A stretch of 38,040 nt of DNA from Escherichia phage Louie, in the sequence record PQ850616.1; one strand, written 5' to 3'. The notes beneath the pieces were generated by a model, which did no database searches, was not told the origin of the DNA, and was given only the letters and a program-made list of their open reading frames with translations. Each line of letters opens with the position of its first letter. Positions within the stretch are counted from its first letter, which is position 1. Positions 26,667 through 27,564 of the stretch are shown here, one piece after another. The translations under genes were made by a program, and so were the position numbers.

Positions 26667-26708
26667 ATAGTACGATTTGTACTTTATCGAGTCAATACAA
26701 AATGTTCT
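26667..26708 (-). promoter_or_regulatory. pL promoter (-35 TTGACT, -10 TACTAT, 17-bp spacer) overlapping two 15-bp operator-like sites (OL)
   Basis: On - strand TTGACTcgataaagtacaaatcgTACTAT; sites AGTACgatttGTACT (26669-26683) and AATACaaaatGTTCT (26694-26708), 25 bp centre to centre. Confidence 0.6.
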
Positions 26709-26754
26709 AAATATAATTAGTTTTTTATAACGCTTTGTATTTAATGGGTTTATA

Positions 26755-26790
26755 TTTTGGAAAAGAAAACCCGACGCTAAGGTCGGGTTA
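26755..26790 (-). terminator. Rho-independent terminator downstream of cI
   Basis: - strand ACCCGACC-ttagcg-TCGGGT followed by TTTCTTTT. Confidence 0.6.
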
Positions 26791-26819
26791 TTGTTGTGTG
26801 TTTTAGAGTTGTGAGGCTG

Positions 26820-27479
26820 TTAACTAAATGTCTCTTCAGGCCACTGGCTGGCGATAACTTTCCCTACTACGGAACAGCTATCATTGCATGGAATCATTGG
26901 ATATTGCGGGTTTAGTGGCTGTAGGAACACCTGACCGCTATCCCTGATCAGTTTCTTGAAGGTAAACTCGTCACCACCAAGTCTGGCTATGCAGAAATCA
27001 CCTGGCTCAACAGCCTGCTCAGGGTCAACGAGAATTAACATCCCGTCAGGAAAGCTTGGCTTGGATCCTGTTGGCGCGGTCATGGAATTACCTTCAACTT
27101 CAAGCCAGAACGCACAATCACTGGCTTTTTTGGTTGTGCTGACCCATCTCTCCGCATCAACTTTGGTAAAGGTTCTAAGCTCAGGCGAGAACATCCCGGC
27201 CTGAACATGAGAAAAAACAGGGTACTCATATTGTTTTTTTAACGGGGTAGATGAGTATTCGCCAACAGGTGAAAATGTACCGTCGTGGTTGAATGAGACG
27301 TTATCAATACCAAGGTATTTAAACACCACACCAATCTCGTCAAGAGATGGATGACGAGATCCGCGCAACCAGTGACCAATTCCACCCTGCGTCATACCAA
27401 GCTCTTCAGCTAACTTCTCTTGAGTTATGCCGAGCTCTTTCATTCTGGATCTAGCCAGTTCATACCATTTCATTTTCAT
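26820..27479 (-). CDS. cI: CI-type repressor, chimeric: lambda-like C-terminal domain with non-lambda N-terminal HTH
   Basis: C-terminal about 135 aa ([22 protein letters not shown]…[11 protein letters not shown]) matches recalled lambda CI; N-terminal XRE-type HTH ([23 protein letters not shown]) differs. Start at MKMKW (27479) or MKW (27473); track start 27521. Confidence 0.85.
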
Positions 27480-27488
27480 ACCCTTATT

Positions 27489-27564
27489 ATTACGCTCTGT
27501 ACTAAAACCATCCATGCACAAGATGTATTTTTTGTTTGCATTCTAAAAGTACATATCGTATTAT
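27489..27564. promoter_or_regulatory. OR operator sites and pR candidate
   Basis: 15-bp sites ATTACgctctGTACT (27489-27503) and AGTACatatcGTATT (27548-27562) related to the OL sites; pR candidate -35 TTGCAT (27535-27540), -10 TATTAT (27559-27564) upstream of cro. Confidence 0.45.

Follow-up and report, generated by a model that had tools for sequence, protein, structure and literature searches.

The region between positions 26667 and 27564 of Escherichia phage Louie, which lies in a lambdoid early region and is bounded by the -10 elements of pL and pR, is very probably, judging from its sequence, an ordinary lambdoid immunity region, of the VT2-Sakai (Sp5) type, carried inside a temperate, P22-like E. 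coli phage with an early region that for the rest is largely lambda-like. All positions are those of the window, that is, the whole stretch of 38,040 nucleotides (PQ850616.1) that was analysed. The allele of the Sakai type and its six operators are already described, and near-identical phages have been deposited (Dewey, vB_EcoP-720R6, and vB_EcoP-683R2), whose immunity region is 99% identical to that of phage Louie. Of 5,426 complete E. coli genomes, 786, or about one in seven, contain the patch formed by the N-terminal domain of the repressor, OR and cro. As a discovery the region is of little weight, being a known and very common immunity type. Its value lies in annotation: with phage Louie placed in the Sakai immunity group, homoimmunity with Stx prophages of the Sp5 type is predicted, a prediction relevant to superinfection and to recombination with Shiga-toxin phages.

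The repressor gene cI (26820-27479, minus strand) was taken from the list of open reading frames and its start at 27479 was confirmed by string search. The 219-residue product (MKMKWYEL...) matches the transcriptional repressors of PHROG 4 (5e-62) and comprises two parts: a non-lambda DNA-binding domain of the HTH_3 family with its linker (residues 1-83; Pfam, 8e-11), and a lambda-type S24 domain for cleavage and oligomerisation (residues 84-219; Pfam Peptidase_S24, 1.3e-28). In global alignment with the mature residues 101-236 of lambda CI, the C-terminal domain is identical at 132 of 136 positions, the four differences being G124V, S139C, E217D, and G236S, whereas the N-terminal domain and linker share only 20 of 83 residues (24%) with lambda CI. 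The best solved structure for the protein is the lambda repressor (PDB 3bdn, E = 1.9e-95), with near-identity confined to the C-terminal part. The cleavage site VQA-GMF (A111-G112), the GNSMT motif containing S149, and the TFKKL motif containing K192 are all kept, so that an N-terminal HTH, a C-terminal Peptidase_S24 domain, an Ala-Gly cleavage site and a catalytic Ser/Lys dyad, the features of a LexA/CI-type S24 repressor, occur together. RecA-stimulated autocleavage would be expected from the 97% identity to the lambda C-terminal domain.

Comparison with lambda by blastn places the limits of this mosaic quite precisely. Lambda homology covers N and nutL up to the start of pL (26123-26661, 85%), the 3′ portion of cI (26826-27230, minus strand, 93.6% to lambda 37233-37637, with the mosaic junction at about codon 84), and nutR, tR1 and cII (27813-28215, 98%). 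The genes involved are a lambda-like N to the left of cI (26092-26475; Pfam N36) and a lambda-like cII to the right of cro (27927-28219), and further downstream the protein encoded by Q (34170-34790) is 99% identical to that of lambda. The non-lambda DNA is restricted to two patches, OL (26662-26758) and the cI N-terminal domain, OR and cro (27231-27812), over which no blastn match to lambda was obtained; these two patches hold the six operators, the N-terminal domain, cro, the intervening promoter, and short flanks. Neither the CI DNA-binding domain nor the OL/OR sequences of lambda, which define imm-lambda, are present. The initial annotation had described CI as a lambda C-terminal domain joined to a foreign HTH, had regarded N, nutL, cII and Q as lambda-like, and had excluded Cro from this likeness; all three points agree with these comparisons and with that of Cro. 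Modular repressors are textbook knowledge for lambdoid phages.

Between cI and OL lies a 39-bp lambda remnant (26759-26797, 87% to lambda 35796-35834) that comprises the 3′ end of rexB with the adjoining downstream DNA. A terminator hairpin found by the terminator scan (26768-26789, minus strand), downstream of cI, lies within it, and both rexA and rexB are cleanly absent.

The cro gene (27591-27806, plus strand) encodes a 71-residue protein of the HTH_3 type (Pfam, 1.4e-12) with no real similarity to lambda Cro; it is all-helical and stands outside the fold family of lambda Cro. Its recognition helix reads TQGAIGHWESG, and the local alignment of the CI N-terminal domain with Cro reveals a recognition helix, TQG(G/A)IGHW, common to both. 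Such near-identity fits two proteins that compete for one set of sites. The best solved relative of Cro is a 'lambda repressor-like protein' (PDB 28tn, E = 2.4e-16, full-length alignment), which may serve as a structural template for this Cro family.

The two early promoters were located by consensus scan, in agreement with their initial placement: pL (TTGACT-17-TACTAT) occupies 26695-26667 on the minus strand and pR (TTTGCA-18-TATTAT, or equivalently TTGCAT-17-TATTAT) occupies 27535-27564 on the plus strand. The homology to the lambda N leader and nutL begins at the predicted +1 of pL, around 26661 (the blastn boundary, equivalent to lambda 35583). A putative pRM (27479-27514, minus strand) was read by eye, with a -35 of TGGATG (27514-27509), a 17-nt spacer and a -10 of AATAAT (27491-27486). 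It falls below the threshold of the consensus promoter scan, which fits an activator-dependent promoter, and AP005153 has a putative promoter annotated at the equivalent place. No better alternative for pRM or pR was found by eye. The predicted +1 of pRM, at 27479, coincides with the A of the cI ATG, so that the cI transcript would lack a leader, like that of lambda.

Six 15-bp operators of the form A(G/A/T)TAC-N5-GTA(C/T)T are recognized in the region from the sequence and from the annotation of AP005153. On the left side, OL1 (AGTACGATTTGTACT, 26669-26683), whose half-sites form a perfect palindrome, overlaps the -10 and the spacer of pL; OL2 (AATACAAAATGTTCT, 26694-26708) is 25 bp from OL1 and shares 2 bp with the -35 of pL; and OL3 (ATAACGCTTTGTATT, 26727-26741), which corresponds to OL3 of VT2-Sakai and to the third operator annotated there in AP005153, is 33 bp from OL2. 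On the right side, OR3 (ATTACGCTCTGTACT, 27489-27503) overlaps the -10 of the putative pRM; the weak OR2 (TGCACAAGATGTATT, 27515-27529), centred at about -43 from the predicted pRM start, has OR3 at 26 bp on one side and OR1 at 33 bp on the other; and OR1 (AGTACATATCGTATT, 27548-27562) overlaps the spacer and the -10 of pR.

The initial annotation had proposed four sites fitting A(G/T)TAC-N5-GT(A/T)(C/T)T. Three matches to this pattern do occur, at 26669, 27489 and 27548 (OL1, OR3, and OR1; 0.28 expected), while the fourth site, OL2, escapes it because its half-site AATAC departs from A(G/T)TAC at one position. The exact pattern being too strict, a half-site motif matrix built from the six sites was used in its place to scan all 38,026 positions of the 38-kb window. 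The five best scores are those of five operators, that is, all but OR2: OL1 ranks first, OR1 second, OR3 third, OL2 fourth, OL3 fifth, and OR2 ninth. In leave-one-out matrices the corresponding ranks are 1, 2, 3, 4, 6, and 43. The sixth-best score belongs to an operator-like 15-mer (AAAACATGCCGTGCT, 27714-27728) within the coding sequence of cro, which is probably a chance match. A matching operator set does therefore exist, and two of its members overlap the -10 (OL1) and the -35 (OL2) of pL at 25 bp from centre to centre, as first proposed. Nonetheless, the original set of four lacked OL3 and the weak OR2, and the two sites described as flanking pR are in fact OR1, starting at 27548 on the -10 of pR, and OR3, starting at 27489 on the -10 of the putative pRM, 59 bp away.

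The low rank of OR2 raises the question of whether OR contains two real operators only, OR1 and OR3, and 'OR2' resembles an operator by chance. The left half of the site (TGCAC) is a poor match, and a leave-one-out rank of 43 among 38,026 positions is what such a reading would lead one to expect. However, sites with one or two good halves occur some 25-26 bp from OR3 not only in the Sakai type but also in Salmonella phage L, Salmonella phage 29485 and a Klebsiella phage (the last one, read by eye, is devoid of the GT half). In addition, the half-sites of OR2 are conserved while its spacer varies, and the sole half-site change seen, from TGCAC to TGTAC in phage Dewey, approaches the consensus. 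This site is an annotated operator in AP005153 and the OR2 of VT2-Sakai in PMC10742460, and no better OR2 about 25 bp from OR1 was found by eye. A chance origin of the site is accordingly quite improbable, and OR is treated here as tripartite.

The assignment to the VT2-Sakai type comes from both the proteins and the operators. The N-terminal domain of the VT2-Sakai CI (AP000422) is 94% identical to that of phage Louie, and the Cro of the Stx1 phage AP005153 is identical at 70 of 71 positions. The same type is found in the Stx1 (AP005153) and Stx2-II (AP005154) phages of O157:H7 Morioka V526, in Nil2, in phage 2851 and in the PA-series phages, all of them with 92.6-92.7% DNA identity to phage Louie from cI through cro. 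The six VT2-Sakai operators are given in Table S1 of PMC10742460, and OR1-3 and OL1-3 had been predicted for the Sakai phage in PMC4587872, which credits them to Fattah et al. (2000). With respect to the published operators, 59 of 60 half-site positions and 24 of 30 spacer positions are the same in phage Louie (p = 0.005), the differences consisting of one half-site position, in OL3, and six spacer positions. Phage Louie therefore has both the CI and Cro DNA-binding domains and the half-sites at OL1-3 and OR1-3 that characterize the VT2-Sakai type; the order of the six operators is unchanged, their spacings are equal within 1 bp, and the C-terminal domain of CI is of the lambda type in both. 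The operators were already annotated in the GenBank records AP005153 and AP005154, from 2003; in the former, OR and OL each bear three putative operators, and pR, pRM and a leftward promoter at OL (mislabelled in the record) are also indicated. In PMC8951638, the CI of the Sakai type is named 'Clade I' and has an overall identity to lambda CI of 61%.

The differences from the Stx phages are found around this core. The flanks of phage Louie are lambda N and lambda cII, whereas those of the Stx phages are an HK97-like N and an HK022-like cII. In phage Louie, OL lies directly downstream of cI and of the rexB remnant with its terminator, whereas in the Sakai-type Stx phages the position after cI is filled by other ORFs and the gap to OL amounts to about 1.2 kb. 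Finally, phage Louie carries a P22-like virion module and has no stx. Two other systems, PaaR2/YdaS of CP-933P (PMC8630535) and the repressor systems of BAA2326/933W (PMC5977221, PMC3317979), were ruled out as the same system because their operators differ.

From its sequence, phage Louie would have an immunity specificity distinct from that of lambda, as had been predicted. Its CI DNA-binding domain is unrelated to that of lambda and lacks the N-terminal arm, and its 15-bp operators (AGTAC-N5-GTACT) are unrelated to those annotated in NC_001416, which are 17-bp sites of the TATCACCGC type. In PMC10742460, an immunity specificity overlapping that of lambda was suggested, since lambda CI, the sole repressor tried on the VT2-Sakai operators in that study, shifted all of the corresponding oligonucleotides in EMSA. 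However, the apparent Kd values were micromolar (3.7-6.4 μM, as compared with 0.2-0.35 μM for lambda OL1/OR1 in the same assay), within the range expected of weak or non-specific binding; the AGTAC half-sites are unrelated to the TATCAC of lambda; and the N-terminal domains share 24% identity. Such an overlap is consequently very hard to credit, and a separate specificity is preferred. The initial annotation had named an N-terminal domain of a known immunity type with different operators as the finding that would speak against it. The domain does belong to an immunity type already known, that of VT2-Sakai, yet the operators of that type are the same as those found here, which leaves the interpretation intact but removes its novelty.

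Additional information on the operators was obtained from their variation. A scan of IMG/VR yielded 231 contigs that encode a CI N-terminal domain of the phage Louie type, of which 80 were compared; all 80 carry the lambda-type C-terminal domain. Across these loci and the Stx phages (85 loci), 4 of 60 half-site positions vary as compared with 13 of 30 positions in the central spacers, and a manual tally gave 4 and 14 distinct substitutions, respectively (Fisher p = 2e-5), statistics that refer to closely related sequences and count variable positions rather than independent events. Of the four variable half-site positions, two shift toward the palindromic consensus and two are in the degenerate left half of OL3. 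The half-sites of OL1 and OL2 are invariant in 75 loci, in all of which the two operators are 25 bp apart, and those of OR3 are invariant in 80 loci. Constant half-sites and drifting spacers would be expected of a protein whose contacts lie in the outer 5 bp on either side rather than in the centre. As for the spacings, OR2-OR3 is 26 bp in every locus and OL2-OL3 is 33-34 bp, while OR1-OR2 ranges from 32 to 35 bp across 80 related loci because of the variable length of a T-run between OR2 and the -35 of pR (27530-27535 in phage Louie). This variation in length could be either biological or homopolymer sequencing noise.

The same DNA-binding module occurs in more distant phages. Relatives of the N-terminal domain with about 54% identity by tblastn include those of Salmonella phage L, Salmonella phage 29485 and the Klebsiella phage, and their cI-cro intergenic regions contain the operator motif of phage Louie. 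In phage L, the OR sites are AATACATTTCGTACT, AATACAATATGTGTG and AATACATCTCGTAAT, at 34 and 26 bp, and the OL side contains two AGTACATTTTGTATT sites 25 bp apart; for phage L and ST64T immC, the motif thus resembles that of phage Louie as AATAC-N5-GTACT at OR and AGTAC-N5-GTATT at OL. An OR geometry of 33-34/26 bp is seen in both phage L and 29485. The Cro of phage L is 70% identical to that of phage Louie (50/71), with the recognition helix TQGAIGHYESG, and the helix of its immC repressor (cII), TQGAIGHWLNG, read after removing the cII-101 frameshift by hand, nearly matches that of phage Louie. By contrast, the C-terminal domain of the phage L repressor is only about 47% identical to that of phage Louie and is not of the lambda type, and the host of phage L is Salmonella. 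Phage L shares the spacing but not the C-terminal domain, which indicates that the spacing follows the module formed by the N-terminal domain, Cro and the operators. As far as can be read from these sequences, this module is joined to different C-terminal domains in different phages, and the chimeric repressor of phage Louie therefore appears as an ordinary case of lambdoid module exchange. A small comparative addition to what was known is that motif and spacing track the N-terminal domain/Cro module, which Salmonella phage L has too, instead of the C-terminal domain. No listing of the phage L operators was found in the literature examined, and the immC motif sites (2417-2491 and 3260-3299 of the locus extract) may represent unrecorded annotation for phage L and ST64T.

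The layout of the lysis-lysogeny switch in phage Louie is in many respects that of lambda. Both have tripartite OL and OR, the same arrangement of pL, pR and pRM, an OR1 at about -16 of pR and an OR2 at about -43 of pRM, a cI mRNA that is probably leaderless, N/nut, cII/pRE and Q, and C-terminal domains of CI that share the cleavage site, the catalytic Ser/Lys and the cooperativity surface. In contrast, phage Louie lacks rexAB, and its OR1 and OR2 are separated by 33 bp instead of the 24 bp of lambda. Operator binding, the order in which the sites are filled, the activation of pRM and the cooperating pairs may be deduced from this layout. CI dimers would bind the six operators through the non-lambda HTH, with contacts to the 5-bp half-sites on the outside but none to the 5 bp in the middle. 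CI at OL1/OL2 would block pL and CI at OR1 would block pR, while CI at the weak OR2 would probably activate the leaderless cI transcript, which would be shut off by occupancy of OR3 at high CI. Cro, with nearly the same recognition helix, is predicted to bind the same sites and to repress pRM in lytic growth. The C-terminal domain would supply dimerisation, dimer-dimer cooperativity and RecA-stimulated self-cleavage at the Ala-Gly bond by the Ser/Lys dyad, and because it is lambda-identical, induction should work as in lambda. The literature examined yielded no experiment in which the cognate repressor was tried on these sites.

It is important to note that with 33 bp between OR1 and OR2 (32-35 among relatives) the lambda-style cooperativity of this pair is not assured. 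The switch might instead be wired unlike that of lambda, with OL1-OL2 and OR2-OR3 as the cooperative pairs and OR1 acting alone on pR, so that OR2 and OR3 would be occupied by CI at the same time and the autoregulation of pRM would be chiefly negative. In this sense, OR2-OR3 is fixed at 26 bp and OL1-OL2 at 25 bp in every locus examined (the former also in phage L and 29485, the latter in phage L), OR1-OR2 varies through the T-run, the motif score of OR3 is almost equal to that of OR1, and the geometry is retained along with the DNA-binding module (N-terminal domain, Cro and operators) where the C-terminal domain differs. Against this, motif scores do not separate CI affinity from Cro affinity, the homopolymer differences may come from sequencing or assembly, 33 bp correspond to about 3.1 helical turns and place OR1 on the same DNA face as OR2, with a looping-type cooperativity possible, and the position of OR2 with respect to pRM, as in lambda, suggests activation. 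Such a wiring is on the whole unlikely, and the lambda-like scheme is preferred. It is likewise doubtful, if conceivable, that a lambda-identical cooperativity domain acts here on a geometry of the phage L type, in which case the cooperative pairs, and hence the autoregulatory logic of pRM, may differ from those of lambda. Were this so, the switch, very widespread among E. coli prophages and shared with the Sakai Stx2 phage, would amount to a domain swap made by nature, one that tests how cooperativity geometry is set.

The remainder of the genome is also mosaic. In a search of the left 24 kb, the virion module was found to be P22-like, with Dewey, CurroJimenez_Bas106 and IME10 as the closest records, and the stretch 1-24000 can be described as of the Dewey, IME10 and epsilon34-like kind. 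Further lambda-like patches are found in 31057-34893, namely from the end of ren to ninB, ninE, ninF, and Q. The genes for replication are not of the lambda type and comprise, by position relative to the annotation of Dewey, an initiator-like ORF (29044-29940) and a DnaC-like loader (29925-30788). Between cII and these genes, an ORF of 266 amino acids (28241-29041, plus strand) matches PHROG 16986 and HNH endonuclease families; it is annotated in phage Dewey too, whereas lambda has no such gene at the same place. In the pL operon, an ORF of 340 amino acids (24739-25761, minus strand; PHROG 1376 and 21365, function unknown) contains a long coiled-coil-like stretch rich in Glu, Ala, Lys and Arg. 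Just downstream of N, an ORF of 62 amino acids (25900-26088, minus strand; phrog_19863, function also unknown) contains two CxxC pairs and is zinc-ribbon-like.
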